A model generated the notes under the pieces. The model saw only the letters and a list, made by a program, of their open reading frames with translations. It was not told the DNA's origin and made no database searches. 64,000 nt of DNA. Source: an uncultured Chthonomonadaceae bacterium. GTDB taxonomy: Bacteria; Armatimonadota; Chthonomonadetes; Chthonomonadales; Chthonomonadaceae. The stretch is from assembly GCA_963835065.1 (NCBI GenBank), contig CAWIEK010000049.1, forward strand, positions 384,001 to 448,000, in the 5' to 3' direction. The translations under genes were made by a program, and so were the position numbers. Shown one piece after another: positions 45,677-63,719 of this stretch (position 1 is its first letter; every line of letters starts with the position of its first letter).

Positions 45677-45916
45677 GGGGTTTTTGTGTTCTGCTCAAAG
45701 CGTTTGTTGCTCACAAGGCAACAAACGCTTTTTGGTGTCAATGTCCTTGAATTATTGCCGTATGCAGAGGCGTGAAAAAGAAAAAGAAAAATTCTTTACT
45801 TGCGGTGCAACTAACTGTTGCGCAATCCAATCAATGAGTGTGAAGGACGCGGAATACACAACGATACGAACCAGCCGCGCCCACCAAGCAATTTTCAGAA
45901 ACAAGGCAACCACCTG

Positions 45917-46096
45917 ATGTTTGAAGCGAACCTACAACCGCAGACAACGCGCCGCAACGATTGGCAACCGCAACCCACTTTTCCGAGTTGCGATGGTCAG
46001 ATACGCTTTATTGGCCTATGTCAAAATACTGCCGCCTGCCTGCGCAATAATCGCAATAATCGTAAACGCCCCAATGGGACAGGAGGAAACGCTTAA
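45917..46096 (+). CDS. Putative leader peptide (59 aa) of the tRNA array
   Basis: ATG 45917, weak AAGG SD; ends ...LRNNRNNRKRPNGTGGNA*; last codons form the antiterminator arm. Confidence 0.5.
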   Translation: MFEANLQPQTTRRNDWQPQPTFPSCDGQIRFIGLCQNTAACLRNNRNNRKRPNGTGGNA

Positions 46097-46167
46097 CCCG
46101 TTTCCTCAGCCAGCGAAAACTCTTCGCCCACTGTCCCAACAATAACCGGCGCAGTGGGCTTTTGTAT
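46075..46167 (+). terminator. Attenuator: intrinsic terminator with competing antiterminator
   Basis: Terminator GCCCACTG(46126-33)/CAGTGGGC(46152-59)+TTTTGTAT; alternative helix TGGGACAG(46075-82)/CTGTCCCA(46131-38). Confidence 0.65.
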
Positions 46168-46274
46168 GCCTAAAATGCTCGTTTGTTCGGTGTTATATTG
46201 GTGTTCGGTATTCAGGTGTTCAGGCAATGCCTCTTCTCTAATGCCTAATACCTAATATCTAATGCCTTGTCCCT

Positions 46275-46346
46275 GCGCTCGTGGTGTACCGGTCAACATG
46301 CCTGCCTGTCGAGCAGAAGAAGCGAGTTCAATTCTCGTCGAGCGCG
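46275..46346 (+). tRNA. trnD: tRNA-Asp(GTC)
   Basis: Cloverleaf; acceptor GCGCTCG/CGAGCGC; loop CTGTCGA; G73; no CCA. Confidence 0.85.
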
Positions 46347-46388
46347 TGAAGTTAGTTGATAGTAAATAGTTGATAGTTGATAGGCCAT

Positions 46389-46463
46389 GCCCTTGTAGCT
46401 CAGCGGATTCAGAGCATCGGGTTGCGATCTCGAAGGTCACAGGTTCGATCCCTGTCAGGGGTA
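46389..46463 (+). tRNA. trnR: tRNA-Arg(GCG)
   Basis: Stem TCGGG/CTCGA, loop TTGCGAT; GGTTCGAT T-arm. Confidence 0.85.
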
Positions 46464-46515
46464 TTGGGTTCGTTTTGCACCTTGATAACTGCATAGTGAA
46501 CATTGTGTCTTGTTT

Positions 46516-46588
46516 GCGTCGGTGCCCGAACGGTTAAGGGAGCGGTCTGCAAAGCCGTATTGTGTCGGTTCAACTCCGACCCGGCGCT
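46516..46588 (+). tRNA. trnC: tRNA-Cys(GCA)
   Basis: Loop CTGCAAA; U73. Confidence 0.88.
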
Positions 46589-46672
46589 TGAAGGGAGTTG
46601 ATAGTTTTTAGTTGATAGTTGATAGACACGCGCTTTCCTATCAACTATGGACTATCAACTATCAACTGCTTC

Positions 46673-46745
46673 GGAAGCGTAACTCAACGGTTAGAGTATT
46701 CGCCTTTTAAGCGAAGGGCTGGAGGTTCAAATCCTCTCGCTTCCA
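46673..46745 (+). tRNA. trnK: tRNA-Lys(TTT)
   Basis: Stem TTCGC/GCGAA, loop CTTTTAA. Confidence 0.9.
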
Positions 46746-46867
46746 TGAGGAACGGTGTTCAGGTATTCAGGTGTTCGGTGTTCAGGTTAAATACCTGCTC
46801 AGGCGCGCTAACTTGTAGAAAAGTATTTCCGAACACCTGAATACCCGAATACCTGAATACCGAATGA

Positions 46868-46939
46868 AGGGGTGTAGTTCAACGGGAGAACGATGGCTTC
46901 CAATACCATCTGTTGCGGGTTCAACTCCTGCCGCCCCTG
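46868..46939 (+). tRNA. trnW: tRNA-Trp(CCA)
   Basis: Acceptor AGGGGTG/CGCCCCT, loop TTCCAAT, G73; C31-A39 mismatch. Confidence 0.8.
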
Positions 46940-46964
46940 TTTACGAAAAAGTGAGTTGCACAGC

Positions 46965-47038
46965 GCCGACCTAGCCCAATTGGTAGAGGCCGTTGGTTCA
47001 GAACTAACGGGTTGGGGGTTCGATTCCCCCGGTCGGCA
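46965..47038 (+). tRNA. trnL: tRNA-Leu(CAG) with short variable loop
   Basis: Stem GTTGG/CTAAC, loop TTCAGAA; Leu-type D-arm; 5-nt variable region; A73. Confidence 0.82.
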
Positions 47039-47141
47039 TTAGGAGAGAGGTCAGGATTCAGGGGTCAGGGGTCAGTCACGACTTTCTGCCGGCAGGAACA
47101 CAGACTTTGGAATTGGGAGGGAACAGCAAGTAGGAAAGTAT

Positions 47142-47213
47142 GCCGACGTAGCTCAGTGGGAGAGCAGCTGTTTCGTAAACAGCAGGTCAGCGGTTCGAAT
47201 CCGCTCGTCGGCT
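47142..47213 (+). tRNA. trnT: tRNA-Thr(CGT)
   Basis: Stem GCTGT/ACAGC, loop TTCGTAA. Confidence 0.92.
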
Positions 47214-47225
47214 TGGGCGTACAAA

Positions 47226-47296
47226 CGGGGTGTAGTGAAACGGAATAACGGCTTGCTTGGGACAAGCTATTACAGGTTCAATTCCTGTTACCCCGA
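47226..47296 (+). tRNA. trnP: tRNA-Pro(TGG)
   Basis: C1-G72, A73; stem GCTTG/CAAGC, loop CTTGGGA. Confidence 0.85.
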
Positions 47297-47314
47297 TGAT
47301 TTCGTGTGTGCTGC

Positions 47315-47386
47315 GCGGGGGTCCTCTAACGGTTAGGAGACGTCTCTTTCAAGGACAAAACGCGGGTTCGACTCCCGTCCTCCGTA
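47315..47386 (+). tRNA. trnE: tRNA-Glu(TTC)
   Basis: Loop CTTTCAA; Glu-type D-arm; GGTTCGACT. Confidence 0.8.
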
Positions 47387-47469
47387 TGAGAAGAGGTTGA
47401 GGGTTGAGGGTTGAGAGTACCGGCAACGGCTACTTCTCTCATTCTCCACTCTCCACTTTCACTCAGTTT

Positions 47470-47543
47470 GCGCGAGTAGCTCAATCCGGTGGAGCGAACG
47501 CCTTACAAGCGAGGGGCTGCGGGTTCAAATCCTGCCTTGCGCA
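47470..47543 (+). tRNA. trnV: tRNA-Val(TAC)
   Basis: Loop CTTACAA; weak top of anticodon stem. Confidence 0.8.
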
Positions 47544-47564
47544 TTTAGTATGAGAATATAGTTT

Positions 47565-47637
47565 GCCTCCGAGGTCAATTGGAAAAGGCGTCACGCTTCG
47601 AACGTGGATACAGCAGGTTCGATTCCTGCCGGGGGCA
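47565..47637 (+). tRNA. trnR: tRNA-Arg(TCG)
   Basis: Stem TCACG/CGTGG, loop CTTCGAA; A instead of U at position 8. Confidence 0.78.
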
Positions 47638-47734
47638 TGGGTAGGGAGTAGGATGTGGGGAGTGGGGAGTAGGAAAAACAGGATATTACAGTACAGGTCT
47701 ACTCCCTACTGCCTACTCCCTAACCCCTATATTT

Positions 47735-47807
47735 GCAAGAGTGGCGCAATTGGTAGCGCGTTTCACTGCCGTCGAAATGGTTGCGGGTTCGACTCCCGTC
47801 TCTTGCA
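47735..47807 (+). tRNA. trnG: tRNA-Gly(GCC)
   Basis: Acceptor GCAAGAG/CTCTTGC, loop CTGCCGT; A73. Confidence 0.82.
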
Positions 47808-47846
47808 TGAATTGTGTTGAGCCTTGTGTTTGGATGGTCTGCATTG

Positions 47847-47921
47847 GCCGGGCTAGCTCATGCTGGTTTGAGCGCACTTCTTATAAAGGTGAGGACGTGG
47901 GTTCAATTCCCATGCCCGGTA
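47847..47921 (+). tRNA. trnI: tRNA-Ile(TAT)
   Basis: Stem CACTT/AGGTG, loop CTTATAA; A73. Confidence 0.85.
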
Positions 47922-47952
47922 TGAAGATGCAAAGATGGTACGGCGTTTCTGA

Positions 47953-48024
47953 TCCCCTGTAGCTCAATGGTGGAGCGTTCGGCTGTTAACCGAAGGGTTG
48001 CTGGTTCGAGTCCAGCCGGGGGAG
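47953..48024 (+). tRNA. trnN: tRNA-Asn(GTT)
   Basis: U1-A72, G73; loop CTGTTAA. Confidence 0.92.
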
Positions 48025-48029
48025 TTTGC

Positions 48030-48100
48030 GCACCTGTCGCTTAATGGGAAAGCCCACTCCTGATAAGGGTGTCACGAAGGTTCGATTCCTTCCGGGTGCA
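48030..48100 (+). tRNA. trnI: tRNA-Ile(GAT)
   Basis: Stem CACTC/GGGTG, loop CTGATAA. Confidence 0.85.
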
Positions 48101-48214
48101 TGGGAATAGGGTTTTAAGGTTTTAGGGTTGTATGGTTTCAGGTGTTGGGGAATAAGTATTTGGGGAACGGTGAAGGGCGCGAGTTGTGGTTACGGATAGG
48201 TTTGAAGGGGATGC

Positions 48215-48286
48215 GCCGCAGTAGCTCAGTGGTAGAGCGCCATGCTGAAAACGTGGACGTCGTCCGTTCAACTCGGACTTGCGGCA
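48215..48286 (+). tRNA. trnF: tRNA-Phe(GAA), integration target (contains attL)
   Basis: Stem CCATG/CGTGG, loop CTGAAAA. Confidence 0.9.
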
Positions 48287-48402
48287 TTGTTAGGGTTGTG
48301 CGTAGGTAGAGTACCCGCTCCTACCTGTGCGCGTTGCGGGTTTAAGCCGTGTCTCTACCCCGCCATGTTGCTGTCATTAAGCACTCTGAAAGGACAGCAA
48401 CC

Positions 48403-49398
48403 ATGCTTCTTTACACCCTGATTGGCGACTATCTGCAAGCCCTGCGCGTGGAACAAGGCGCGGCGGCGACCACGCAGAAAGGCTATACCGCCCAAATTCG
48501 CCACTTCCACACCTGGCTGACAGCAAACGGCTACCCGGAACCGATACTTGCCGACTTCAACGCGCCCGTTTGCCGCCGCTTCCTGTACTATTTGAGCGGC
48601 AAAGGTTTGAGGCCGCGCAGCATCCGTTCGTACTTCCACCCCCTCAAAGGCTTCGGCGAATTCCTTATCCGCAACGGCGTTCTTACCGACAATCCGGCAA
48701 AGACTGTCACCCTCCCGAAGAAGGACGCCGCCCTACGCAAGACGATCACGGACGAAGAAATCGCCCTCCTGCTGGACGCCTGCCACCGCAACCGCAACCC
48801 GCGCCGCGTGGCGTTGTGTCGCGCTGTTTTGTCTGTTCTGGTCTATGGAGGCTTGCGCCGCTCGGAACTGTGCGATCTGCGCCTGGAGGATGTGACGCTT
48901 CCCGACCCGAAGGACAACAAGAGCAAGGGCAGCCTACTTGTGCGTTGTGGCAAAGGCAGCAAGAGCCGTCGTATCTACCTGCCCGAGGAAGCCCTAACCG
49001 CGCTGAAAGAATGGCTGGCGCTGCGTCCGAAGAACTGCAAGCATCCCTATCTGTTCGTCTATGACGTGAACCGCCGACTTGGACATACAAGCCTGCAAAT
49101 GCTTGTGGAGGATGTGAAACATCAAGCCGGACTTGCGGGGCATGACAACATCAAGCCCCATTCGATACGTCACTGGCGGGCAACCGACCTGCTACGGAGT
49201 GGCGCCAACATTCGGGACGTGCAGGCGTTTCTAGGCCACAGCAGCCTGACGGTTACGGCTATCTACTGCCATTCGTCGGAGGAGCAACTAAGGAACATCA
49301 GCGAACTGACGAACCTGCACAGCCAAACGCAGTCGCCGCCCGATCCACGCCTCGACCGGCAGGACGCGCGCCCCCGCTTGCGCCGGATTGCCCGCTGA
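48403..49398 (+). CDS. int: Tyrosine recombinase / integrase
   Basis: GGLRRSEL, GKGSKSR, HSIRH, LGHS, TAIY catalytic set; adjacent to attL. Confidence 0.93.
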   Translation: MLLYTLIGDYLQALRVEQGAAATTQKGYTAQIRHFHTWLTANGYPEPILADFNAPVCRRFLYYLSGKGLRPRSIRSYFHPLKGFGEFLIRNGVLTDNPAKTVTLPKKDAALRKTITDEEIALLLDACHRNRNPRRVALCRAVLSVLVYGGLRRSELCDLRLEDVTLPDPKDNKSKGSLLVRCGKGSKSRRIYLPEEALTALKEWLALRPKNCKHPYLFVYDVNRRLGHTSLQMLVEDVKHQAGLAGHDNIKPHSIRHWRATDLLRSGANIRDVQAFLGHSSLTVTAIYCHSSEEQLRNISELTNLHSQTQSPPDPRLDRQDARPRLRRIAR

Positions 49399-49427
49399 AA
49401 AAGCAGACACCCGTATGCTTATTGGGG

Positions 49428-49472
49428 TAAAATAAGGGCAGGGTTCTTTGCGGGAACCCTGCCCTTATTTTA
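49428..49472. terminator. Strong hairpin / bidirectional terminator after the integrase
   Basis: 19-bp IR TAAAATAAGGGCAGGGTTC / GAACCCTGCCCTTATTTTA. Confidence 0.75.
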
Positions 49473-49560
49473 GTGCCGTGTGCAGGCGAATGAAGCGATT
49501 AACACCCTCATTCTACCCGCATCCCGGCGCACTCGTCAACACTCGACGGAGGTTTGCGCT

Positions 49561-50625
49561 ATGTTCTACTCCAAAAAAGCCAAAGCCACTTTGGACCGCA
49601 TCAAGTATTTCCAGACGAAGAAACAGGAAGGCTACGCCCGACGGCAAAAACTGCTTGCACCAGACAGACTACCGACAAGCACACCTGATGCTGTCGCACA
49701 AGCGCACATTGACCAGCGCGGTATTTACTTTGAAAACAGGATTCTTTTTTGGGAATGGTTTATCCAAACGGAAATCCACTTTGATCTGGAAACTGGAACG
49801 TTCACCTGTCCTATCGTTACTCCCCTTTTGGTACATGCTTGCGCGAACGCGGGGGAAATTCTACACATGTCTTATGCAGAGTATCGCGCCTACCGGCAAA
49901 TCGTGGAGGCTCCGCCGCACCATACATTGGCGAAGAAGTTTAACAGAGCGATGAAAGCGGCAATGGATGCCTCCGATGCCGCCAGTGAGCAACTCGTCTT
50001 TCAACAGATGTACGCAATAACCGAAGCCCTGTCTAAGCAGCACCCAGCATACAAGCCGACGCATGAAATCGAACATGACGCCTTAACTGGATGGATTGCG
50101 TCTCAAAAGGAACGATGGCATGTTCCGAGAGTAAACCGCCAACGCCCCGCGAACTTGGAAGCCGAAGTCCTGGAAGAAATGCGGAGCAGTGTCTTCCAGA
50201 TGCAACCGCGCGATCTACCTTTCTTTCCTGTCGCATTTGGTGAACCTTCCTTTATCAACCTGCCTACTCTTGTACGTGGAAGTGTGGCGAAGACTAACCA
50301 ATCAGACGAAGATAAGTGGAAAGATCATAATCCCGCGACACAGGCAAAATTGCGCGAAATGACAGAGCCGGCAGATGAAACGGAAGAAGTTCGGCTCCGT
50401 ATCGGGAACCGTCAAGCGTTTGAGGCTTTGCGGCCTCACGCGAGACTTAATCGGCGTGAGAATGAGTACTTTACCTGTTTGCTGGAAAACCCGGAACTCT
50501 ACTTCAATTCTTATGGCGGCAATCTGGCCGTGTCTAAGCGGTTGGGATGGACACCTGAGAATGTGCGCCGGGTGAAAAGTGATTGCCTTGCCAAACTCAC
50601 TGCCGCCGCGCAAAAGCATCCGTAG
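49561..50625 (+). CDS. Hypothetical protein with C-terminal sigma-region-4-like HTH
   Basis: GGAGG SD; LNRRENEYF...AVSKRLGWTPENVRRVKSDCLAKL. Confidence 0.6.
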   Translation: MFYSKKAKATLDRIKYFQTKKQEGYARRQKLLAPDRLPTSTPDAVAQAHIDQRGIYFENRILFWEWFIQTEIHFDLETGTFTCPIVTPLLVHACANAGEILHMSYAEYRAYRQIVEAPPHHTLAKKFNRAMKAAMDASDAASEQLVFQQMYAITEALSKQHPAYKPTHEIEHDALTGWIASQKERWHVPRVNRQRPANLEAEVLEEMRSSVFQMQPRDLPFFPVAFGEPSFINLPTLVRGSVAKTNQSDEDKWKDHNPATQAKLREMTEPADETEEVRLRIGNRQAFEALRPHARLNRRENEYFTCLLENPELYFNSYGGNLAVSKRLGWTPENVRRVKSDCLAKLTAAAQKHP

Positions 50626-50712
50626 CCGCAACAAACTTTTCCAAATATTTTTTCAGAAAGTTCTCACACTTGCCCCCTCCTCGCCGCCTACTGGTGAAGG
50701 AGGGATTTTTTT

Positions 50713-50913
50713 ATGCCAGCTATGCTACCGACACGCCGACTGGTTTGCATTTACGAGGGCAATCTTATCGGCCAGATGCAGCTTCTCGCAACTTCTTGCG
50801 ACCCGGAACTTATTACCATCGCCATGCAGAAGATGTTGCCCCATACGAACAGGCCAATGCGCAGGCCGCGAACCCGCAAACGCCGAGGCAAAGAAAATGG
50901 CCGGAATTGTTGA
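50713..50913 (+). CDS. Small hypothetical protein
   Basis: GGAGG SD, basic C-terminus, in the rightward operon. Confidence 0.45.
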   Translation: MPAMLPTRRLVCIYEGNLIGQMQLLATSCDPELITIAMQKMLPHTNRPMRRPRTRKRRGKENGRNC

Positions 50914-50989
50914 CAGCAATTCCGGCCAAGCAGAACGGACACAAACACGAGACAAACGGCCTTTGGACAAAGGCAAATTGAGGTGAACC

Positions 50990-51610
50990 ATGAACATTAT
51001 GACTGACAAGTGTGCCCTTGTCAACACGCCCCCGACCCGCAATATACGGCGGGACATTACCACTCCTCCGACGCACGTAGCGAAACCGGAAAGCGTCATT
51101 TTGCAGGCTTCTGCCGCCCATATCGAAACGGCGCGCGTCCTTGCGGGTATGCGTACATCGCTGCACGACGGACGGCGCAAGCCGCATGAAGATTTAGGCG
51201 CGGATGCCAACCGTGAGGCCGATTATGTGGGACTTCTCGCCGAATTGACGATCCTGATCGCGCTCATCGGCGCAGGCTTTCGCCCCACCCAATTTACGCT
51301 GTTGGCAAACCCGACGCCAAGCGGTCCCGACTTCGCTCTGAACGGCAAAACCTTCAATGTCAAGGCGTTGCCGATGGGCAAGCGCTTTCTGTGTGTCAAC
51401 GAACGTCAGCGCATCGATCCGCGCCAGCATAGCGATTTTTACTTGCCCATGCAGTTCTTGACGTCAACAACCTTACGCGTATTGAAGCCAATTGAGGCCG
51501 CTGCTGTTGCCACCTGGCCGTTGCGTGAAATGCACAGCGCCTACCGCTCGACAGACATTGCGGCCCTTTCCGCCTTGCACGATTTGAAGGAGGTGGCGCA
51601 ATGCCGGTAA
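50990..51610 (+). CDS. Hypothetical protein, PD-(D/E)XK-like fold
   Basis: GLLAE...GPDFALNGKTFNVK pattern. Confidence 0.55.
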   Translation: MNIMTDKCALVNTPPTRNIRRDITTPPTHVAKPESVILQASAAHIETARVLAGMRTSLHDGRRKPHEDLGADANREADYVGLLAELTILIALIGAGFRPTQFTLLANPTPSGPDFALNGKTFNVKALPMGKRFLCVNERQRIDPRQHSDFYLPMQFLTSTTLRVLKPIEAAAVATWPLREMHSAYRSTDIAALSALHDLKEVAQCR

Positions 51611-51879
51611 AATTCCCCTTCGGCAAATTCAACGGCGTGGCCGTTGATAACATTCCGTCGTGGTACTTGACGTGGGCACTGAGCAACCTGACTGACCTGG
51701 ACACCGCGCTGCGTGACGACATGCAGCGCGTATTGCAGCAGCGGAAACCAGTACGCAAGCCCGCCCCACAAAAGCCTGTCTCTCGTAAGCCCGTTGGGAA
51801 GCGACAGGGCCAGCCCTCAAAACCAACCCCGGAAGCAATTCAGGCATCCATTCGCTTAATGAAGAAGGGAGGCGCGTAA
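51601..51879 (+). CDS. DUF3820 / ExoX-C-terminal-like small protein
   Basis: FPFGKFNG..VDNIPSWYLTW. Confidence 0.7.
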   Translation: MPVKFPFGKFNGVAVDNIPSWYLTWALSNLTDLDTALRDDMQRVLQQRKPVRKPAPQKPVSRKPVGKRQGQPSKPTPEAIQASIRLMKKGGA

Positions 51880-53544
51880 ATGGCAACCCTCCTTATGGAC
51901 GCCGTGAGCAAGCTGCGCGCTGAACCCGATCCTAATCACCCCGGCGATTTTCTGGCGGACTGCCCGGACTGCTGCCAGCGCGCGCTGCAATTGTGCAAGG
52001 ACGCCGAAAGCAATCTTGCCGCCTACTGCCCGAACTGCGGCAAAGGCGCCGGTCCCAAGTTTCGCAAGATGTTTCCCACAATGCCGTCCCTTCCCAAGCC
52101 CTTACCGCGCTCGACGCCTGACCCGCCACCGGCAGAAGCGGAATTGAACCGAGAACTGGCCGGCCTGCCTACAACCGATATGGGCAATGCCGAGCGACTG
52201 GTGAAACGCTTCGGCGCGGACTTGCGCTTCTGCCATAGTTTCGGAAAGTGGCTGATATGGGACGGCAAGCGCTGGAAGCCCGACGACAGCAGCGCGGCCA
52301 TTCGCCTGGCAAAGCGGACGGTACGCCTGATCCACGCGGAAATTGCCAGCATTGACGTGACGGATACGGACTCGGATAAAGCAATGGTAAAGGCGCTCAC
52401 GGCTCACGCGAAGAAGAGCGAGGCGAAAGAACGGCTGATGGCAATGCTGAAACTGGCGGAAAGCGAGGCGGAAGTTTCTGTCACCAGTGACGCGCTCGAC
52501 GCCGACGAGTGGCTGCTGAATGTCGCCAATGGAACGCTCGACTTGCGCACTGGAACCCTGCACCCGCATGTTCGGGCGGACCTGATTACTAAATGCACTC
52601 CCATCCATTATGCCCCGGTGACGTGTCCCTTGTGGACGAAGTTCTTAACCCGCGTAATCCCCGATGAAGCCGTACGCGACTATGTACAGCGCGCGTGTGG
52701 CTATGCCCTGACAGGGCGCACGTCGGCGCAGTGCGTGTTCTTCTTGTATGGCAACGGCAAGAACGGCAAGTCCGTGTTCACGGGCGTATTAGAACACTTG
52801 CTTGCCGAGTATTGGGGCAAGACGCGGGCAGAAACCTTGATGCAAAAACGCGATCAAGGCAATATCCCTAACGATGTGGCCGCGCTGCGCGGGTTGCGCC
52901 TGTGTACCGTGAGTGAAATCAACAACGGCCAGCGCCTGAACGAAGCCCTGATTAAAGACTTGACCGGCGGCGATACGCTGTCTGCCCGCTTTCTGCATCA
53001 GGAGTTTTTCAACTTCAAACCACAGTTCAAATTGTGGCTATACGGAAACCACAAGCCCGAAGTGAAAGGCACAGACGAAGGTATCTGGCGGCGGCTGCGC
53101 TTGATCCCCTTCAATGTGACCATCAGCGAGGAGGAGAAAGATACGGAACTGCCGGAGAAGCTGCGCGGCGAACTGTCGGGCATTCTTGCCTGGGCGGTAC
53201 GTGGGTGCATGGAGTGGCAGCGCGTGGGACTGGCCGAGCCGGAACCAGTCCGTCAGGCGACGCAAGCCTATCGGCATGAAATGGACAACACCGCGCAATT
53301 TCTGGCAGAGCGCTGCACAGATGCGCCGGACGAATGGGGCTTCTGCGCTGAATTTGGCGGCAATCTGTACGAGGCGTATGAGACGTGGTGCAAGCTAACC
53401 GGCGAACACGCCTGCACCAAACGCGCGTTTGGGGATATGTTGACGAAGAAAGGGTATGCGAAGAAGCGCAACGCCAAAGGGCAGCAGTATACCGGAATCC
53501 GGCTGTTGTCCGAGTCGGAAATGCAGGCAAGCGCCTGTGTATAG
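51880..53544 (+). CDS. P4-family / D5-like SF3 helicase with N-terminal Zn finger
   Basis: TDMGNAERL, LNVANGTLDL, YGNGKNGKS Walker A, IKDLTGGD..ARFL, DEGIWRRL. Confidence 0.93.
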   Translation: MATLLMDAVSKLRAEPDPNHPGDFLADCPDCCQRALQLCKDAESNLAAYCPNCGKGAGPKFRKMFPTMPSLPKPLPRSTPDPPPAEAELNRELAGLPTTDMGNAERLVKRFGADLRFCHSFGKWLIWDGKRWKPDDSSAAIRLAKRTVRLIHAEIASIDVTDTDSDKAMVKALTAHAKKSEAKERLMAMLKLAESEAEVSVTSDALDADEWLLNVANGTLDLRTGTLHPHVRADLITKCTPIHYAPVTCPLWTKFLTRVIPDEAVRDYVQRACGYALTGRTSAQCVFFLYGNGKNGKSVFTGVLEHLLAEYWGKTRAETLMQKRDQGNIPNDVAALRGLRLCTVSEINNGQRLNEALIKDLTGGDTLSARFLHQEFFNFKPQFKLWLYGNHKPEVKGTDEGIWRRLRLIPFNVTISEEEKDTELPEKLRGELSGILAWAVRGCMEWQRVGLAEPEPVRQATQAYRHEMDNTAQFLAERCTDAPDEWGFCAEFGGNLYEAYETWCKLTGEHACTKRAFGDMLTKKGYAKKRNAKGQQYTGIRLLSESEMQASACV

Positions 53545-53644
53545 TCAGGGCGTTGTGTATAGTCGTGTATAGTGTGCGGAGGTTTTTTGTTTCAGCGCGT
53601 CTCGTGAAGTGAAAAACATGCACTAACTATACACGACTATACAC
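53537..53644. repeat. Iteron cluster, putative replication origin
   Basis: GTGTATAGT at 53537, 53555, 53565; inverted ACTATACAC at 53626, 53636 (perfect 19-bp IR). Confidence 0.75.
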
Positions 53645-53772
53645 ACCCTACACAGAACACCGTTCTTTTGGGCAAAGAGAAGGCAGATGCCGCCCATCTA
53701 CAAAACATACGGACGTGGGTACATCAGGCACTTGAGGCCGAACTGATGCAGGGAGAACAAAGCAAATTTAGT

Positions 53773-54348
53773 TTAGCGGATACGGCGGAAATATGACAGC
53801 TCCCTGTTGAACTCTCGCAGGGTAAGTACTTGCCCGTCCGCGCTGACTTCAAAAGGCCAGGCCGTTGTGTCTCTTTCAATAAACTCCGCTTGTTGCACGG
53901 AAGGAGGGCCAACCAGCAGTTTGTCACCGGAGACATGGTACTCCCTTATTATGGTAGTCATACCTATAGGGGGTACAAACTCCTCTTTGCTTTGGACAGG
54001 TTCTTGGTAGGACAAAGTATGCTCATTAAAAGTGAGCATATTGTCAAAGACAAAGTTACTTTGTGACGTACTTATCCATACACCTATCAATCTATTCTGT
54101 GATGAGTGAGAGCGCATGAAGAACCATACCGAACCAATTCCCAGAACCACCAAGAGGACGCATAGTGGCTTTAGAAAACCTATCGCGCGAATGGTGGTTG
54201 GCTGTGTTGGTCTTTGATCGGGCGTTAGCATTTGCGTAGGAGGCGAGGCCGGAGGCGCGGTGAACACCGTTCGGTACTGGTGTCCGCATTGCGCACAGTG
54301 CGGAGCGTCGAGGGGAGCAGGGGTAGCGCAACGGGGACATTGTTTCAT
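53773..54348 (-). CDS. Zinc-ribbon membrane-anchored protein
   Basis: CPRC...CAQC, Pro linker, one TM helix. Confidence 0.7.
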   Translation of the reverse strand: MKQCPRCATPAPLDAPHCAQCGHQYRTVFTAPPASPPTQMLTPDQRPTQPTTIRAIGFLKPLCVLLVVLGIGSVWFFMRSHSSQNRLIGVWISTSQSNFVFDNMLTFNEHTLSYQEPVQSKEEFVPPIGMTTIIREYHVSGDKLLVGPPSVQQAEFIERDTTAWPFEVSADGQVLTLREFNRELSYFRRIR

Positions 54349-54476
54349 GGTTTGCTTCTCCTGATGGGACTAAAAGGGCTTCACCAGATGCTCAAGCCTG
54401 TCTGTAATTGGGTTGGTGGTTCAGATTTCATAAAAGCAGTATAGCACAGGCGTCAAGCCCGACAAACATATACATG

Positions 54477-54496
54477 TGTACACAATCTTGTGTACA
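54477..54496. promoter_or_regulatory. Palindromic operator-like site in a divergent intergenic region
   Basis: TGTACACAA-TC-TTGTGTACA perfect. Confidence 0.55.
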
Positions 54497-54512
54497 GAAA
54501 GCAGGTCACCGA

Positions 54513-54872
54513 ATGGCAGAATACCCCGTTTTTGATGCCGCAGGCTTCCGGCGTTTTGTGGAGCAGGATGGCCCCATCATCCACGACGCCATTCACAACC
54601 TGAACAATGTGGGCGAACAGCTGCAGGCCGCGCTGCAAGCCGCGCCCGCGTTGCTGGAAGGACGAACGCCACAAACGGCGAACCGGTGTGCCGACTATTT
54701 GCAGCAGATCGCCGTGACGTTGGCAGCGATCCAGCACGGATTGCTTGTTCTTGACCGCGACTTGGGCAGCATCGGCCTGGGTGTCAATCACGCGGCATTG
54801 GGACTGAGAAGCGAAGCCTTGCAAGCGGCACAGGCGCAACTACGACAACCGAAAGGACGGAGGACACGCTAA
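54513..54872 (+). CDS. Helical hypothetical protein coupled (TAATG) to the next gene
   Basis: 119 aa, amphipathic helices. Confidence 0.6.
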   Translation: MAEYPVFDAAGFRRFVEQDGPIIHDAIHNLNNVGEQLQAALQAAPALLEGRTPQTANRCADYLQQIAVTLAAIQHGLLVLDRDLGSIGLGVNHAALGLRSEALQAAQAQLRQPKGRRTR

Positions 54873-57142
54873 TGGCAGGCGAGAAAACCATGTTAGGCGT
54901 GGATGTGAATGTCGCGGCTCCCAACGCGCGGGAGTTGTTCGGCGACTTGCTGCGATGGGTGGAACAACTCAAGCAGGCCGCCAATGTGCAGATCAACATT
55001 GGCGTACCGGGCAATGTGGGCGCGGGAACCGGCGCGGGCGGCGCGGCGCAGGCGGTACGCAACTCCACGCAGGCCGGCAGTCCGGGCGGCAGTGGGTGGA
55101 GTCCTGCGGGGATGTACACCGGTGCGCCTGCCGCCATGAACAACAGCCAGCGGGCGTATGATGCGGCAAAGGGCGTAGGCTTTCAGGGCAGTTACAACGA
55201 GTGGAAGCAAGCGGAGTTTGAACAGGGGCAGGGACGGCGGCAATCGGCGGCGGAGCGCGAAAACGAACGTCGGCAGCAGCAGGCAGACTGGGCGCACGAC
55301 AACGGGATCAAGCGCCAGCAGGCGGATGAAGCGTGGCTGCTTAGAGACCGGGATCGTGGTCTCAAGCAAATGGACGCCGACTATGCGTGGCTGGACAAGC
55401 AGGACGCGGTTGCCGCCAAAGCCCGCGTTCCCTTCTCGGACGGACTTGGCAACCGGATGCGGCAGGGCTTCAATGTCCTCAACCCGATGGCCGCCAACAA
55501 CGACCTATACACGCGCGGCCAGCAGCGGTATGCTGCGCAAGCGGTGGTTGGACTCGCTACGCACACTATCGGAGGTGAACTGTCGCTGTATGCCAACAAC
55601 ACGGCCACTGGCGATTACAACCCCATGCAGGCGGCAGGACTGGCCGGCGCCGCCGCCGGTGGCTTTCTCGGACTGGCGGCAGGTGCGATAATCGGCTCCG
55701 TTGCGCCGGTTCCACAGCCAGGACTCGGCGCACTCATTGGGATGCAGGGCGGCATGACGACCGGAAGCGCGTATGCGCAGTCTGTCATGGCTCCCTTTAT
55801 GCGGACGCACAGTATGGCGCTGACGCTCTCGTCGATTGCCGCGCGCGAAGGCCGCAATGTCTACGACATGATCGGCGGGCATCACCACCGGATCGACACG
55901 CAGACCAGCGGATTGCAGCATCTGTCCGAAGAAATCAGTTTTCACGGCAAGACTGACCGTGAAATCTTAGGGATTAAGGCAGGACTCTACACCGGCACGG
56001 ACATTATCAGTGGGCCACAACTGGCGCAAACGTATGCCACGCTTGGCAGTGGCCTGCTGGCGGCGGGCAACGATCCGCGCCGCGCCTACGATTTATCGGC
56101 GAACTTAGCACGAAAGTACGGGCAGGCTGCGCCGCAGATGGCGACAATGGCGGCAGGCGTGATTGCGCAGACCGCGAAGTGGGGTGATAATCGGGGCGAC
56201 CTGATGCTGGCAACAGGACCGGAAGCCTTTGGGGCGTATGCGGACGCGACGGGCAAACCCGACTTCACGAAAGAACAACTGCAAGGCTATGGCGACGTGC
56301 AGCGCGCCGACTACCAGATGCAGGTAGCGGAGACAAACCCGCGCGGGCGGGGACAGGCCAAGCAAATCGTGTACGACGCGAAACTGAAAGCCCTGACGCC
56401 CTTTGGAACGGACACGTTGGCGTATCGGCAGGCGCAACAAGGCCGACGGCAAGCGGTATTGCAGGGCTACGAGGAACGCGACATTACCGCCTACGATATT
56501 CCGATGGCGGGACTGGAAGCCGAAGAACGCATCCATCAGGCCTTACCCTATCAGCCGGGCTACAACTATGGCGCGGCTTTAGAGCGCATGGGACTGCGGG
56601 CGAACCAGTTGAACACCGTCGGCAAGCGGTATCAATCCCTCATGGCAAAGGGACAGCTAAGCGAAGAAGAACAGAAGGCCACGTACAGCCAGTACCAGGG
56701 GATGCGGGTCGCGCAGGCGCAGGACGTGGCGGTTCTGGCGGAAGGCGGCGAAGACCGGGCGATGCTCCTCGCGGCAGGACGGGGTAACAGCCATAACCGC
56801 TACGACAGCGAACAGCAGGCGTCTATGGCGGTCTTCAACATCGGCCACCCAAGAAGAAGTCACGGCGCGATCAATGGGCAGCAACTTGCCATGCAGAACG
56901 CTTTCCTGCACAAGTACGATACGCCCGACTTCGATGCCGCCGGCGCGGCGATGCCGAAGGATAGAATGACAGGGATGGACTCTACGCAGGTCGTGGGCTT
57001 GCTGTCGCGCATTGCCGAAGCCGTCGAAAGCCGGGGCAAAGGCATGGGCAGCAGCGTCAATCCGGGTGAGGCGCGCGGCATGGTGACGGGGGCGCTTGCG
57101 CTCACTGATATTCTTGGTATGCCCCCGAAGAACACGAACTAA
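54872..57142 (+). CDS. Tail tape-measure-like protein
   Basis: 756 aa, Ala/Gly/Gln-rich and helical; GAAAGGFLGLAAGAIIGSVAP..GLGALIG glycine-zipper. Confidence 0.55.
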   Translation: MAGEKTMLGVDVNVAAPNARELFGDLLRWVEQLKQAANVQINIGVPGNVGAGTGAGGAAQAVRNSTQAGSPGGSGWSPAGMYTGAPAAMNNSQRAYDAAKGVGFQGSYNEWKQAEFEQGQGRRQSAAERENERRQQQADWAHDNGIKRQQADEAWLLRDRDRGLKQMDADYAWLDKQDAVAAKARVPFSDGLGNRMRQGFNVLNPMAANNDLYTRGQQRYAAQAVVGLATHTIGGELSLYANNTATGDYNPMQAAGLAGAAAGGFLGLAAGAIIGSVAPVPQPGLGALIGMQGGMTTGSAYAQSVMAPFMRTHSMALTLSSIAAREGRNVYDMIGGHHHRIDTQTSGLQHLSEEISFHGKTDREILGIKAGLYTGTDIISGPQLAQTYATLGSGLLAAGNDPRRAYDLSANLARKYGQAAPQMATMAAGVIAQTAKWGDNRGDLMLATGPEAFGAYADATGKPDFTKEQLQGYGDVQRADYQMQVAETNPRGRGQAKQIVYDAKLKALTPFGTDTLAYRQAQQGRRQAVLQGYEERDITAYDIPMAGLEAEERIHQALPYQPGYNYGAALERMGLRANQLNTVGKRYQSLMAKGQLSEEEQKATYSQYQGMRVAQAQDVAVLAEGGEDRAMLLAAGRGNSHNRYDSEQQASMAVFNIGHPRRSHGAINGQQLAMQNAFLHKYDTPDFDAAGAAMPKDRMTGMDSTQVVGLLSRIAEAVESRGKGMGSSVNPGEARGMVTGALALTDILGMPPKNTN

Positions 57143-57417
57143 TGCAGGGGGAAGCGGGAACCTTGCGGGTTTGTGCGCTTCTCCTGCCATTGCTGTAGGA
57201 GCGCGGCAAATTCGGGAGACTCATACGCCAATGCCTGCGTTGCCAGGTGAATATCCCGAATTTCCATCATCTTGAACACAAGGGCGTCGGAGGCTTCGCG
57301 CCCTTGTATCCTACCTTCGGAAGCGTCCTGCGCCAGTTGTTGAAAGTCATCGTAGAGCGCGACCGTCTGTGCCATCAATTGTTCAAACTTCGCTTTCAGT
57401 TCTCGTTCTAAATCCAT
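57139..57417 (-). CDS. Small helical hypothetical protein
   Basis: GGAGGT SD; 92 aa. Confidence 0.6.
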   Translation of the reverse strand: MDLERELKAKFEQLMAQTVALYDDFQQLAQDASEGRIQGREASDALVFKMMEIRDIHLATQALAYESPEFAALLQQWQEKRTNPQGSRFPLH

Positions 57418-57638
57418 AGCAGCACCTCCGGCTTATGCCAATGTTAGATTTTCGCCCGTCCTGTACAGTCGTATCTTGGCAGGACAGGCAATTTATCGTG
57501 TACTTCTCCCGAGTTTTTGTGCCTTCTGGCACGGTTCGCACGGTTGTCTTTTTCTACACTCCCCGCCGCCACAACGCGCCGGAAACGTCGTATTTCCTCC
57601 CGGCACAACGTTCGGCACAATTTGTGCCAGTTTGGACA

Positions 57639-57944
57639 CTACAACGCTTGACGAAGGGCGCGCAGGGCGGCTTCCACGCGGGCGCGCATAGCGGCGTCGA
57701 GGGTGAGGGCGTCGAGTTGGGGCGTGACCTTGTTCCAAAAGTCGCGCTGTGCGTAGGGGCAGCGGGTGCGCGTGGCCTGGACACTGCCCAGATACTTCAC
57801 GACGCGCTGGCGGGGCTTGCCGTGGACGCGCGTGTTCTGCACCAGCACGGCGGAAAGCGTGTCTTTGCAGCCCTTCTCGCCGTTTGGCGTGGCGGCGCTC
57901 CACGTTTGGCGCGTTCCCTGTCTGTGTTTCCAACGAATGTACAT
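57639..57944 (-). CDS. Hypothetical protein (beta-hairpin GKPRQRVVKYLG)
   Basis: AAGGAG SD; resembles the N-terminal domain of IS1634-type transposases and mobile-element small proteins. Confidence 0.6.
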   Translation of the reverse strand: MYIRWKHRQGTRQTWSAATPNGEKGCKDTLSAVLVQNTRVHGKPRQRVVKYLGSVQATRTRCPYAQRDFWNKVTPQLDALTLDAAMRARVEAALRALRQAL

Positions 57945-58054
57945 GCGGTTTCTCCTTTCTGCTTTGCTACTACGGGCAGGTGGAAAGGAGAGGTAATTGC
58001 CCTGTGAACGGCGTAGAGTCGCGCACAGGGCAACGTGATTCGATTACGGCCTAT

Positions 58055-58414
58055 CTACGCGGCCAGCGTGTCCGCGACGTGGGCCAGCACAAGGGTGCAG
58101 CAGGTGTCACTCGCTACCAGCATCTTGCCGGCCAGCGCGCGCACCTTCGCGGCGAAGTCTTCATTTCCAACATGTGGGGCAGAAACACCGTTTTGTACAG
58201 ATGCAGGGCTTTGCGCCCGCGAACAGTTCACCACGCCGAAGTCCGGGAAGTCTTTGCCAACGGTGAACGGGTTGCCGAAGTAACCATCACAGCGCAGGCG
58301 GTCGTCTCTCCTGCCGACAAAGACGTGATCGCTGTATTCCGGCAACTCCTGCCAGCCGTAGGGCAGGCTGGTGAGGTTTACGACGCGGGTTTGCGGGTTC
58401 GTTGCGGTGTGCAT
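58055..58414 (-). CDS. DUF4326-like protein (degenerate)
   Basis: TRVVNL, VFVGRR, YFGNPF, LAGKML. Confidence 0.65.
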   Translation of the reverse strand: MHTATNPQTRVVNLTSLPYGWQELPEYSDHVFVGRRDDRLRCDGYFGNPFTVGKDFPDFGVVNCSRAQSPASVQNGVSAPHVGNEDFAAKVRALAGKMLVASDTCCTLVLAHVADTLAA

Positions 58415-58486
58415 ACTTCTTCTTCTCCTTGTGCAGTGGGGTGTCAGGCCGGGAATGGGTACGGCTCCCGGCAGGCCGTGCGGGTG

Positions 58487-58882
58487 TCAGCGTCGAGTAC
58501 GCTTGTGCGTCATGTGGCGGATAGGTCGGCCTATGAGCGCGTCGGTAGACACAGCGGCTTGCGTGAGCAGGACGGGCGCGGGCGGCGCGTGGTCTACCAG
58601 CAGAGCCGAAGCGTAGTCCAGAAACTCGGCCTGTCGCTCCAGCATCAGCGCGACGGCCTGCTCCTTGTCGTCCGTGTCCGGCTCGGCGGCTCCGACTTCG
58701 ATGAAGGCGTACCCCAGGCGCATGTACAGGCCGTCAAAGAGTGTGTCGTCTTCCACGCGCTTGACGGGCGCGGGCGTGTCTGGCGGTTTGGGCGCGTCGG
58801 GCGTCGGCAGGCAGGGCGCAACCGGATCGTTCCAGTTCGGCTTGGGCGGGCGCGTCGGGCGGGGCAATTGTTTCGTGTGCAT
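58487..58882 (-). CDS. Hypothetical protein
   Basis: AGGAG SD; Pro-rich N-terminus. Confidence 0.55.
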   Translation of the reverse strand: MHTKQLPRPTRPPKPNWNDPVAPCLPTPDAPKPPDTPAPVKRVEDDTLFDGLYMRLGYAFIEVGAAEPDTDDKEQAVALMLERQAEFLDYASALLVDHAPPAPVLLTQAAVSTDALIGRPIRHMTHKRTRR

Positions 58883-59002
58883 GGTTCTTCTTCTCCTGTG
58901 TTGGTGGTAGAATGGAACCGGCAGGGCGTCTCACTTCTTGCCGGTTCGCAGGGTGTCGGGCGTAGGGAAGTTTGCCGCTTTCCTATGCCCGCTTTGTGTG
59001 TC

Positions 59003-59302
59003 TTACAGCGGCGGGCGGGCGGCGTCCTGTCGGTTTAGAATGGCTTCGCTGAACGGCAAGTCCAGTTCGTGCGTCATTTCCTGTTCCCAATAGCGCGTCA
59101 GGACTTTCAGGGCGCTTTTCAAGTCCTTGTGGCGCGTGACGAGTTGGCTCTTGCCCTTGTTGCCAATCATCTTTTGGGTTTGGCTGTGCAGGGCGAGCAA
59201 TTCCTGCGTGTGGGTAATGTCGAGCGCGCAGCGGGTTTGCAGGGCGTCCAGCACGTCTTTGACCGTGACGGTGGCAGGTCGGGGTGGCGCTTGCGTTTTC
59301 AT
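59003..59302 (-). CDS. Hypothetical protein
   Basis: GGAG SD; in the leftward operon. Confidence 0.55.
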   Translation of the reverse strand: MKTQAPPRPATVTVKDVLDALQTRCALDITHTQELLALHSQTQKMIGNKGKSQLVTRHKDLKSALKVLTRYWEQEMTHELDLPFSEAILNRQDAARPPL

Positions 59303-59383
59303 GTTCCGTATTCTCCGTAGGGTTGGTGTTGTGGCAGGGTAGCGAACTGGATACCCTGCCGGGTTGTCTGGCAATGGTGGCGA

Positions 59384-59605
59384 TTAGCCGCGCGGTTTCA
59401 TGCGGCCTTTGCGCGTCAGGGCTTTGGCGAAGTTGCAGGCCATGTGCCGGCCTGCGCTGTCGGTGCAGTCGTAGCGTTTCACGATGCTTTCAATCGCCGC
59501 GTGAAAGCCTGCCGAACATTCGTCTTTGGTGAACTGGTGGCGGCGGGCGTCGTGTCCGGGCTGGAACGCGCCGGGGTTCGTTTTGCGCGTGGTCTGCATC
59601 AGCAT
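59384..59605 (-). CDS. Small hypothetical protein
   Basis: AAGGA SD; GAFQPGHD..RH.FT..EC..G motif. Confidence 0.55.
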   Translation of the reverse strand: MLMQTTRKTNPGAFQPGHDARRHQFTKDECSAGFHAAIESIVKRYDCTDSAGRHMACNFAKALTRKGRMKPRG

Positions 59606-59715
59606 TGCTTTGGTTCCTTATCGGGTAGAATCGGAACCGGGAGGGCTGGTCAAGTTTTCCCGGTTCCGGGCTTAGGGAGTGTTGACGCACTTCCTAAGCC
59701 CTTCCTTGTTGGTGG

Positions 59716-60384
59716 TTACAGCGTCACCTTGTCGGCGGGCTGTAAGTCCAGACGGTTGCACAGTTCTTTGCCCCAGTATTCGCCAATGACGAGCAGGGCG
59801 GTTTCCAGTTGGCACACGCGCCTATCGCGGCTATCCTTCACGCCGATTTTGTACACGGATGCGAGTTCGCGGGCGGCTTCCAAGTCCTTGACCATGCGAA
59901 CCTGCAAGGCTTCCAGAAGGGCGCGAACCGTCAACACCGTTTCGTCCGGTTCCGGTACGGCGTAGGGCGCGGGCAGGAGACATTCGGGAACGCCTGTCAG
60001 CAAACGTTCGCGTTCGCCGTCCCACTCTTTGCAGTAGGCGTCAAGGGCGGATACTTCTTCTTCAACGGTCAACGTCAACGCCTGCTGCGCGTGTTCGGCC
60101 TGCAAGCGCAGTTCTTCTTTCACCCACAGGATATGCTTGCAAATGTCCCGATGCTTCTGCCAATCTTCACAGGTGCAGCAGGCGGCTTCCACGTTGACCG
60201 TATGAAAGCGATGTTCGGGCGTGTTCACATGGTAGGTATCCGGGAGCGGCGCGTCTTTCAGCGTTGCAACCTCAAAGGTATAGCCCTGCGCGGTCAACTG
60301 CTGCGCTTTTTCCCAACAGCGCGCCAACCTTACAGCCTGCTGCGCGTTGCGCGGTTTGTCGGTGTGCGTGAGTGTGTTCGTCAT
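59716..60384 (-). CDS. SWIM zinc-finger protein
   Basis: CTCEDW......CKHI. Confidence 0.8.
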   Translation of the reverse strand: MTNTLTHTDKPRNAQQAVRLARCWEKAQQLTAQGYTFEVATLKDAPLPDTYHVNTPEHRFHTVNVEAACCTCEDWQKHRDICKHILWVKEELRLQAEHAQQALTLTVEEEVSALDAYCKEWDGERERLLTGVPECLLPAPYAVPEPDETVLTVRALLEALQVRMVKDLEAARELASVYKIGVKDSRDRRVCQLETALLVIGEYWGKELCNRLDLQPADKVTL

Positions 60385-60545
60385 TGTCGTATCCTTTCGG
60401 GTAGTAGAGTGTGCGTCTTCAGAACGTGCGTTGCGTCATGGCGGCTCTTTCACTTCCCGGCGTTCCTGCTTGATAACAGGTCGAGACTTTAACATCATTC
60501 GGGAAGTCTCTGTATGAAGTTTGTCTGCATCGTTCTTATGTCTCT

Positions 60546-60680
60546 ATTATACACCTATTACGCACCTATAACCAGTAGACAAACAGGTAGACACGAAAAC
60601 TTTCTTGACTTTTTTACACCTATCTGCTATCATTTACACTATAATCAGGTGTGCAACGTCTCACATTTAGGTATCTGATA
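60546..60680. promoter_or_regulatory. Divergent promoters with repeated (A/G)CACCTAT boxes
   Basis: + strand TTGACT(60605)-17-TATCAT(60628) with extended TG; - strand TATAAT at 60546-51; boxes at 60551, 60562, 60616 and inverted partial boxes near 60647, 60668. Confidence 0.65.
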
Positions 60681-60692
60681 GGAGTGTGAACT

Positions 60693-60881
60693 ATGCTGAA
60701 AGAGAATGATCCGCGTTACGCTACACATTTCGCTATGTCGCTGCGTCTCAAACCGGGAACGGGGCAACTGCTGGAAGATATGGCGAAGCAAATGGATACC
60801 AGCAAGACGGCGGTTATCACGCGCGCCCTGCGAGAACTGGCACGGCGGGAAGGTATCGAAGTGAAGGAGGAAACGGCATGA
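60693..60881 (+). CDS. Ribbon-helix-helix (CopG-like) regulator
   Basis: MSLRL....QLLEDMAKQMDTSKTAVITRAL. Confidence 0.82.
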   Translation: MLKENDPRYATHFAMSLRLKPGTGQLLEDMAKQMDTSKTAVITRALRELARREGIEVKEETA

Positions 60882-63489: not shown

Positions 63490-63550
63490 CAGTGGTAGAG
63501 CGCCATGCTGAAAACGTGGACGTCGTCCGTTCAACTCGGACCTGCGGCAT
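63490..63550 (+). repeat. attR: 3' 61 bp of tRNA-Phe
   Basis: 60/61 identical to 48227-48287. Confidence 0.95.
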
Positions 63551-63632
63551 AGAACAGGTGATGAACGATGAATGATGAGTGATGAATGAAATTTTGCTCA
63601 TCGTTCATCACTCATCATTCATCATTTTTTCC

Positions 63633-63719
63633 GGGGAGGTGGCCGAGTCCGGCTGATGGCGGCGTGGTGCTAACGCGCAGTACCTTCGGGTATCGCAGGT
63701 TCAAATCCTGTCCTCTCCT
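63633..63719 (+). tRNA. trnS: tRNA-Ser(GCT), last gene of the interrupted array
   Basis: Acceptor GGGGAGG/CCTCTCC, loop GTGCTAA, long variable arm GTACC-TTCG-GGTAT. Confidence 0.82.

Follow-up and report, generated by a model that had tools for sequence, protein, structure and literature searches.

Long arrays of transfer RNA (tRNA) genes, known as L-arrays, and tRNA-Ile genes with a UAU anticodon have both been described in bacteria. In Anabaena PCC 7120, L-array tRNAs are induced and charged under translational stress, and their role in survival is unresolved in the literature (PMC8421152). A tRNA cluster of mycobacteria is expressed, more highly in stationary phase, and its advantage was stated to be unknown (PMC6582537). 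The UAU anticodon coexists with TilS, the enzyme of the lysidine route to AUA, in Cyanothece, Ferrimonas and Lactobacillus casei (PMC3575796), and why TilS-positive bacteria keep tRNA-Ile(UAU) was stated as open (PMC6582537, PMC3575796). In the upstream open reading frames (ORFs) of whiB7/wblC, a completed leader leads to termination and stalling to read-through, with codon content setting the signal (PMC10274678, PMC7157823). Here we describe a tRNA array of an uncultured Chthonomonadaceae bacterium (Armatimonadota), in a stretch of 64,000 nucleotides (nt) of contig CAWIEK010000049.1 (the window). Its anticodon set, which includes Ile(UAU), Arg(GCG) and Arg(UCG), is by itself ordinary and of known kinds. 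What is new is an attenuator predicted to gate this and other chromosomal units of spare tRNAs and RNA-repair genes: its leader would be matched in codons to the tRNAs, and AUA enrichment goes with Ile(UAU).

The tRNA array and its predicted attenuator

The array has 16 same-strand tRNA genes within 2.0 kb (window 46274..48286, + strand, called by ARAGORN and Rfam), in the order Asp, Arg, Cys, Lys, Trp, Leu, Thr, Pro, Glu, Val, Arg, Gly, Ile, Asn, Ile, Phe. A tRNA-Ser(GCT) gene (63633..63719, +) is the last of the array; it is separated from the others by an inserted element and comes directly after Phe in the element-free array of the congener G001. The array is almost certainly of the L-array kind, with Arg anticodons of the host type: it is a long, close run on one strand, supernumerary to a full housekeeping set and patchy among kin. 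Sixteen of its 17 anticodons are duplicated by a housekeeping tRNA elsewhere in the host genome (G000), UAU being the sole exception. Syntenic arrays were found in 2 of 60 relatives, the congeners G001 (22-23 tRNA genes) and G002, and other arrays occur in G019, G033 and G375 (these and all other G numbers denote further genomes compared).

Upstream of the array lies a promoter-like motif, GCAACT-N17-RTCAA (45807..45834, +), which is conserved in G001 and G002 and which we presume resembles promoters of extracytoplasmic function (ECF) sigma factors. The motif also precedes most related tRNA units and a unit of the host with Ala, Tyr and RNA-ligase genes. Genome-wide, GCAAC[TC]-N17-RTCAA has 31 matches in the host, many of them intergenic (a raw count without chance control), and these make up a candidate alternative-sigma regulon.

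The motif is followed by a leader ORF of 59 codons (45917..46096, +; MFEANLQ...GTGGNA), with one AUA and seven CGC/CGU codons. The leader is 59 codons long in G002 and 56 in G001, and the start motif and stop position are shared. Its last codons contain the 5′ strand of a predicted antiterminator (46075..46082, +), which pairs with 46131-46138, within a predicted intrinsic terminator with a G+C stem, a long loop and a U-run (46126..46165, +). The nascent RNA 46070-46145 folds into the antiterminator helix (z = -6.4; 0 of 200 shuffles were as stable), the core of which is invariant in the host and both congeners. The downstream part alone folds into the terminator (z = -3.7). Both congeners share this hairpin, and in the G001 stem an A-U pair is replaced by G-C, a compensatory change. 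A scanner for sigma70 and terminator consensus sequences, limited to loops of 8 nt or fewer, called no terminator. As in whiB7-type attenuators, the leader end in the host is predicted to overlap an antiterminator that excludes the terminator, and an intrinsic terminator is predicted before the gated genes. These folds suggest that leader, antiterminator and terminator probably form an attenuator gating the array.

AUA codons in the leaders of Ile(UAU) units

Ile(UAU) genes were present in 15 Armatimonadota genomes, 13 of 401 by pattern search plus G002 and G019, which are outside the 401. In 12 of the 15, the gene is part of a unit of 2 to 23 tRNAs behind a leader ORF and a terminator, and UAU units often carry genes for RtcB, Ro60/TROVE, RNA ligases, Tpt1 or SPFH proteins. 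The other three were left out of the set of UAU leaders (G110 and G122 have stand-alone genes; in G019, UAU is in the second segment of an array). Four units without UAU provided control leaders: the Ala, Tyr and RNA-ligase unit of the host, the first segment of G019, G033 and G067a. The leader stop lies 54-76 nt upstream of the U-run in 15 of the 16 leaders, and no such stop-to-U-run arrangement was found for G033.

All 12 UAU leaders have an in-frame AUA codon, compared to none of the four control leaders. Together, the UAU leaders contain 23 AUA in 724 codons, where 7.4 are expected from base composition and 3.9 at the host rate of 5.4 per 1000 (from a crude set of long ORFs); their two other frames combined hold 14. 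AUA accounts for 23 of their 41 Ile codons, compared to 12% genome-wide. In the control leaders it is absent from all 219 codons and thus from all eight Ile codons, with ten occurrences off-frame. When each of six lineages was represented by its poorest leader, there were still 12 AUA against 4.2 expected (p = 0.0015). This enrichment in UAU units is a correlation, and codon matching beyond AUA was counted by hand.

The second unit of the host (L042, G000:C49:61388-62021, - strand) consists of the promoter-like motif, a 40-codon leader, a terminator, tRNA-Ala(TGC), tRNA-Tyr(GTA) and an RNA ligase gene (PF09414). By hand count, its leader has 10 Ala and 6 Tyr among 40 residues, 16 in all; the leaders of small units reflect the tRNAs encoded with them. 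The leader in the window has seven CGC/CGU codons compared to 2.5 expected (p = 0.012), with CGA and CGG absent, and one AUA in 58 codons compared to 0.31 expected. The initial annotation had pointed out that this leader uses the codon types read by the array's Arg and Ile tRNAs. That is literally true for CGC/CGU and AUA but weak alone, as AUA enrichment is clear only across related units.

Folding of the related leaders gave a mixed picture. In 7 of 12 leaders, the real ORF end lowers the terminator probability beyond 39-40 of 40 shuffles, although in G017 only slightly, to 0.91. Among the control leaders, those of the Ala/Tyr unit, G019 and G067a retain the terminator when folded as free RNA, with a probability of 0.62-0.88.

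A number of points weigh against a leader that responds to AUA and switches the array. The window array's own leader has just the one AUA. Leaders, start codons and lineages were selected by eye, and the contrast counted by lineage is 6/6 UAU to 0/2 control (p = 0.036). Counting the AUA-free leader of G019 as a UAU leader reduces the score to 12/13; in that genome UAU lies in a second segment with a promoter-like motif of its own directly before it, and the UAU genes of G110 and G122 stand alone. In G001 and G112 the terminator persists at equilibrium, with 36 and 33 of 40 shuffles giving equally low values; for G066, G067b and G020, where 5, 9 and 5 of 40 did so, the real sequence did not clearly outperform the shuffles. 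For the array's own leader, the free-RNA terminator probability is 0.0 when 75 nt of the leader are included and 0.47 when 60 nt are, and with about 27 nt the terminator is the most stable fold, so that the computed outcome varies with the segment folded. Because the equilibrium outcome depends on the leader length included, the switch is a prediction and is probably kinetic. In Anabaena, array anticodons did not match the codon use of stress genes (PMC8421152). Taken with the codon counts, these points leave AUA-specific sensing by the leader evenly balanced.

We propose the following mechanism. RNA polymerase would start at the GCAACT-N17-RTCAA motif. Once a ribosome had arrived at the final leader codons, it would cover 46075-46082, allowing the terminator to form and stop transcription. 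If a ribosome stalled earlier, the 46075-46082 strand could pair with the 5′ arm of the terminator and the tRNAs would be made. Stalling might be caused by an antibiotic, by cleaved, uncharged or unmodified tRNA, or by too little spliced and lysidinylated tRNA-Ile2 at AUA. The spare tRNAs, which have other bodies and often would need fewer modifications (U34 in place of lysidine, A37 in place of 1-methylguanosine at position 37), would then refill the pool, including AUA decoding, and so close the loop. The initial annotation had suggested that the array could help under stress or against anticodon nucleases; its stress link, like its remark on leader codons, goes in the right direction, and the leader belongs to a predicted attenuator. 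On balance we favour a spare L-array in which Arg(GCG) and Arg(UCG) repeat housekeeping tRNAs and Ile(UAU) is a second AUA reader, and which is likely transcribed only if the leader is not finished in time. More tentatively, and with slightly less than even confidence, we suggest that UAU in Armatimonadota is an on-demand backup of lysidine-dependent AUA decoding, wired to a leader that measures the speed of AUA translation, and that spare-tRNA and RNA-repair operons are more widely codon-matched feedback loops whose tRNAs need neither TilS nor TrmD.

A less probable, though still serious, explanation is that the leader is a general sensor of translation stress, whiB7-like and driven by antibiotics, in which AUA, as a slow and rare codon, does no more than set the threshold, and Ile(UAU) is a spare like many others, without special feedback. 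This fits the arrays of the host, G001 and G002, which carry nearly all amino acids behind leaders with only 1-2 AUA. An untranslated leader is also predicted to give read-through, so any block would induce the array, and the Anabaena array is induced by any ribosome-targeting drug (PMC8421152). A general sensor does not, however, account for control leaders of like layout in which AUA occurs only off-frame, or for small units that mirror their own tRNAs.

Decoding of CGN and AUA codons in the host

The three anticodons reported in the initial annotation are confirmed, with their loops, by ARAGORN and Rfam (gathering threshold 29 bits): tRNA-Arg(GCG) (46389..46462, +; loop TT-GCG-AT, anticodon 46424-46426, 61 bits), tRNA-Arg(UCG) (47565..47637, +; loop CT-TCG-AA, anticodon 47598-47600, 53 bits) and tRNA-Ile(UAU) (47847..47921, +; loop CT-TAT-AA, anticodon 47882-47884, 54 bits). 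The assembly does contain indel errors, with ileS split across two frames. A read-error origin of the anticodons was nevertheless rejected, as they occupy identical array slots in G001 and G002 and recur in independent contigs of public sequencing runs. A contig of run X2 is identical to window 46384-46591, which covers the Arg(GCG) gene. The TAT anticodon is covered by contigs of runs X3, X4, X6 and X7 and the TCG anticodon by those of X3, X4 and X6, with no change at either anticodon among the differences listed (13 further differences lie beyond these).

The anticodons have also stayed constant where tRNA bodies have been exchanged (the Ile(TAT) body of G002, and the Arg(GCG) bodies of G001 and G002, differ from those of the host), and the anticodon stem of Ile(UAU) varies between run contigs by paired changes, for example at 47876/47890. 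Together with a leader geometry conserved across families, this makes it very unlikely that the array is passive cargo of a mobile element and its anticodons and leader mere leftovers, even though the array is patchy among relatives, has an integrative element inside it and has different flanking genes in G001 compared to the host and G002.

The initial annotation had read the three anticodons as a set that bypasses both TilS (lysidine) and TadA (inosine), and called for a genome check. For TadA this reading fails. The best matches to tadA in the host genome, which is 92% complete, were a RibD-like protein of 369 amino acids and two other deaminases, all below the cut-off, and no Arg(ACG) was found in the host tRNA set. 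Across the order, tadA was over the cut-off in none of 68 genomes, while the same search does detect the gene in 23 of 201 genomes of the phylum. The housekeeping Arg tRNAs of the host are GCG (contig C11), TCG (C30) and CCG (C7). A housekeeping-type Arg(GCG) is visible in 25 of 34 genomes of the order among the matches listed (a hand count, with 136 further matches), and of 15 loci that were fetched, 11 had Arg tRNAs and none had ACG. Among the matches listed, two in the order fit the ACG pattern exactly, in G042 and G028, and the G042 locus is without any tRNA. The array Arg genes thus bypass nothing, because the host lacks tadA and its housekeeping Arg anticodons are already GCG, UCG and CCG. 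Arg decoding without tadA, in which G34 and U34 (with or without C34) tRNAs read the CGN box, is known from Thermotoga, Borrelia, Helicobacter and some Mollicutes, lineages in which tadA and Arg(ACG) were lost together (PMC3711424, PMC6063277). With no tadA, no Arg(ACG), and GCG and UCG as housekeeping anticodons, the host's order is one more such lineage and shows no difference from them.

That the three anticodons are real and occur together in the host, G001 and G002, with UAU paired with GCG also in arrays of G019 and G375, could still suggest a designed set. There is, however, no TadA to escape in the order, and the metagenomic array L185 combines UAU with Arg(ACG). A set designed to escape both enzymes is therefore refuted for this host, and we give it next to no weight.

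For TilS the outcome is different. The host tilS is intact (532 amino acids, with PP-loop, TilS and TilS_C domains), and a tRNA-Ile2(CAU) is present at C37:50062-50414, where a group I intron (Rfam Intron_gpI, 70 bits) interrupts it after U33. Plain ARAGORN output mislabels this gene as Leu(CAA) and would have made UAU the sole AUA reader of the host, which we rejected once the split gene was found. Because tilS is intact and Ile2(CAU) present, UAU is supernumerary and a second route to AUA. The proposed TilS bypass stands in this reduced form: judged from sequence, Ile(UAU) is in part supported as a potential, lysidine-independent second route in a host that keeps the first. Since Ile2(CAU) is split by the intron, AUA decoding in the host needs splicing as well as lysidine. 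Of 11 UAU-bearing genomes tested, 10 have a tilS over the cut-off, and the exception, G019, has a completeness of 75%. The host tRNA-Leu(UAA) also carries an intron (C9:116923-117230).

Whether Ile(UAU) is of use depends on its charging, and here several observations are unfavourable. The UAU body of the host and G001 has G4-C69, while that of G002 has C4-G69, the pair that is an Ile identity element in E. coli; acceptor stems vary widely over 119 metagenomic UAU loci. The isoleucyl-tRNA synthetase (IleRS) carries Trp (CxRCW motif; KCARCW) at the site of E. coli W905 in the host, G001, G020, G112 and G375, that is, in 5/5 IleRS of the zinc-finger type examined. For E. coli IleRS, which has that Trp, the efficiency with UAU is 360-fold lower than with LAU (PMC3575796). 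A second, eukaryote-like IleRS was not found in the host, which has one ileS; of the further matches, on C43, C69, C63 and C49, the one examined (C43) is a ValRS-like protein by eye. In B. subtilis, by comparison, a tRNA with unmodified U34 (UAU) reads AUA and supports growth without tilS (PMC3919564), and the IleRS of that species has Arg at the W905-equivalent site (PMC3575796). We consider it somewhat probable, from the sequences, that the tRNA-Ile(UAU) of the array is charged with Ile and useful.

The Trp-type IleRS also allows an improbable alternative, in which Ile(UAU) is expressed in stress but poorly charged. It would then serve as a decoy that diverts anticodon nucleases or, when charged and carrying a modified U34, would misread AUG as Ile. 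The host has mnmG, so U34 of array tRNAs may still be modified; a UAU tRNA reads AUG on E. coli ribosomes (PMC3575796), and a sponge role has been raised for the Anabaena array (PMC8421152). Against this alternative, a decoy gives no reason for the preference for AUA over AUC and AUU in the leaders of UAU units, and in B. subtilis U34 stayed unmodified and AUG misreading was low (PMC3919564).

The stand-alone Ile(UAU) genes of G110 (C1:578192) and G122 (C10:211358) are in genomes with both tilS and tadA; the IleRS of G110 is longer, has no zinc-finger motif in the part fetched and is possibly of the eukaryote-like type. In Planctomycetota (Isosphaeraceae and kin; L093, L094, L096, L097 and L100), Ile(UAU) has a housekeeping position inside the cluster of tuf, secE, nusG, ribosomal protein genes and rpoB.

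A further difference between array and housekeeping tRNAs is at position 37. TrmD requires G36-G37, and trmD is present in the host. A37 follows G36 in 17 of 19 Leu and Arg tRNAs of arrays, compared to 0 of 6 housekeeping Leu and Arg tRNAs, and all 12 housekeeping G36 tRNAs have G37. In the window, Arg(GCG) and Arg(UCG) both have A37 where the housekeeping copies have G37, and A37 is also found in tRNA-Leu(CAG) (46965..47038, +), whose short variable arm makes it 74 nt long compared to 85 nt for the housekeeping tRNA. Over seven arrays (three of them close kin), 22 of 33 G36 tRNAs have A37, and nine metagenomic arrays show it in 14 of 25; Pro tRNAs of arrays keep G37 in 5 of 6. The idea of spare tRNAs that are light in modification is thus supported at TilS and TrmD and not at TadA. 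We found no paper on A37 in array tRNAs in the open-licence PubMed Central (PMC) and bioRxiv literature.

Neighbouring features and relation to known systems

The element inserted in the array is an integrative element of about 15 kb in tRNA-Phe (window 48349-63541), with a 52-bp direct repeat (48227-48278 / 63490-63541). It encodes a tyrosine integrase (Pfam Phage_integrase; 48349..49398, +), a D5-type primase (51880-53544) and a protein of 756 amino acids without a Pfam match (54872-57142). Downstream of it are a Phe remnant and Ser(GCT) (63479-63719), the latter being separated by the element from the rest of the array. At this tRNA-Phe site G002 carries an element of 4.4 kb, and G001 has none. 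The immediate flanks of the window array are a GH16/PA14 protein gene and the integrase, and RNA-repair or homing-endonuclease genes were not seen there. When the array was compared with plasmids and phages by BLAST, only single tRNAs matched, with a coverage of at most 7%.

The inter-tRNA spacers at 46350-46380, 46600-46670, 46760-46860, 47390-47465 and 47640-47730 consist of inverted repeats of low complexity. These are also found at other places in the genome, and they may fold as processing or insulating hairpins. Outside the array, the host also has atypical tRNA-like genes: at a contig end (C19:1-333), a tandem run of similar bodies with the calls Glu(TTC) and Cys(GCA), and calls of a short-stem 'Cys(ACA)', a 'Stop(TTA)' and a second Ser(TGA) (C49:587868-587941, C42:1858-1953 and C22:76608-76691). 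In a different lineage, L121 (G019:C60:56000-75500) is an array of about 40 genes in two segments, with a near-complete anticodon set that includes Ile(UAU), Arg(GCG) and short-armed Leu tRNAs.

In its combination of Ile(TAT) and Arg(TCG), a TilS-positive host and a short-armed tRNA-Leu, the array is like the transferred cluster of Mycobacterium mucogenicum and M. phocaicum (PMC6582537). It differs in that Arg(TCG) is specific to the cluster in mycobacteria and a duplicate of a housekeeping tRNA in the window host, and the available mycobacterial passages describe no leader control (PMC6582537). As in Mycoplasma mobile, a tRNA-Ile(UAU) is available for AUA (PMC3575796). In M. mobile, however, tilS is absent and the wobble site of IleRS is an Arg, whereas the window host keeps tilS, Ile2(CAU) and Trp, with neither Arg nor Lys at the W905 site, a state that resembles the Cyanothece and Ferrimonas cases (PMC3575796). 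To the question of why such bacteria keep tRNA-Ile(UAU), the AUA-enriched leaders before UAU units offer a concrete, testable answer: UAU would be a fallback under regulation, for use when the lysidine route fails.

The predicted control region is like that of whiB7/wblC in having a leader of 50-90 codons and an intrinsic terminator that competes with an antiterminator (PMC10274678, PMC7157823). There, the attenuator gates a transcription factor, and control of six tRNA genes by WblC is only indirect (PMC7157823); in the window, it is predicted to gate the tRNAs that read the leader's own codons. No paper on attenuator control of tRNA arrays was found in the open-licence PMC and bioRxiv literature. 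The repressor of the Anabaena trn operon is reportedly TrcR, with TrcR-type control acting through tandem 9-nt repeats over a sigma70 -10 box. The window array is like that operon in being a long, patchy, same-strand array of supernumerary isodecoders, with related units linked to rtcB and RNA-repair genes (PMC8421152). Control of the Anabaena operon is by repression at direct repeats over a sigma70 promoter, and the main text does not mention UAU, lysidine or attenuation (PMC8421152), whereas the window array has a leader ORF and a terminator behind a different motif. If the predicted attenuator operates as proposed, it would add a second mode of control for bacterial tRNA arrays, by the ribosome itself instead of a repressor.

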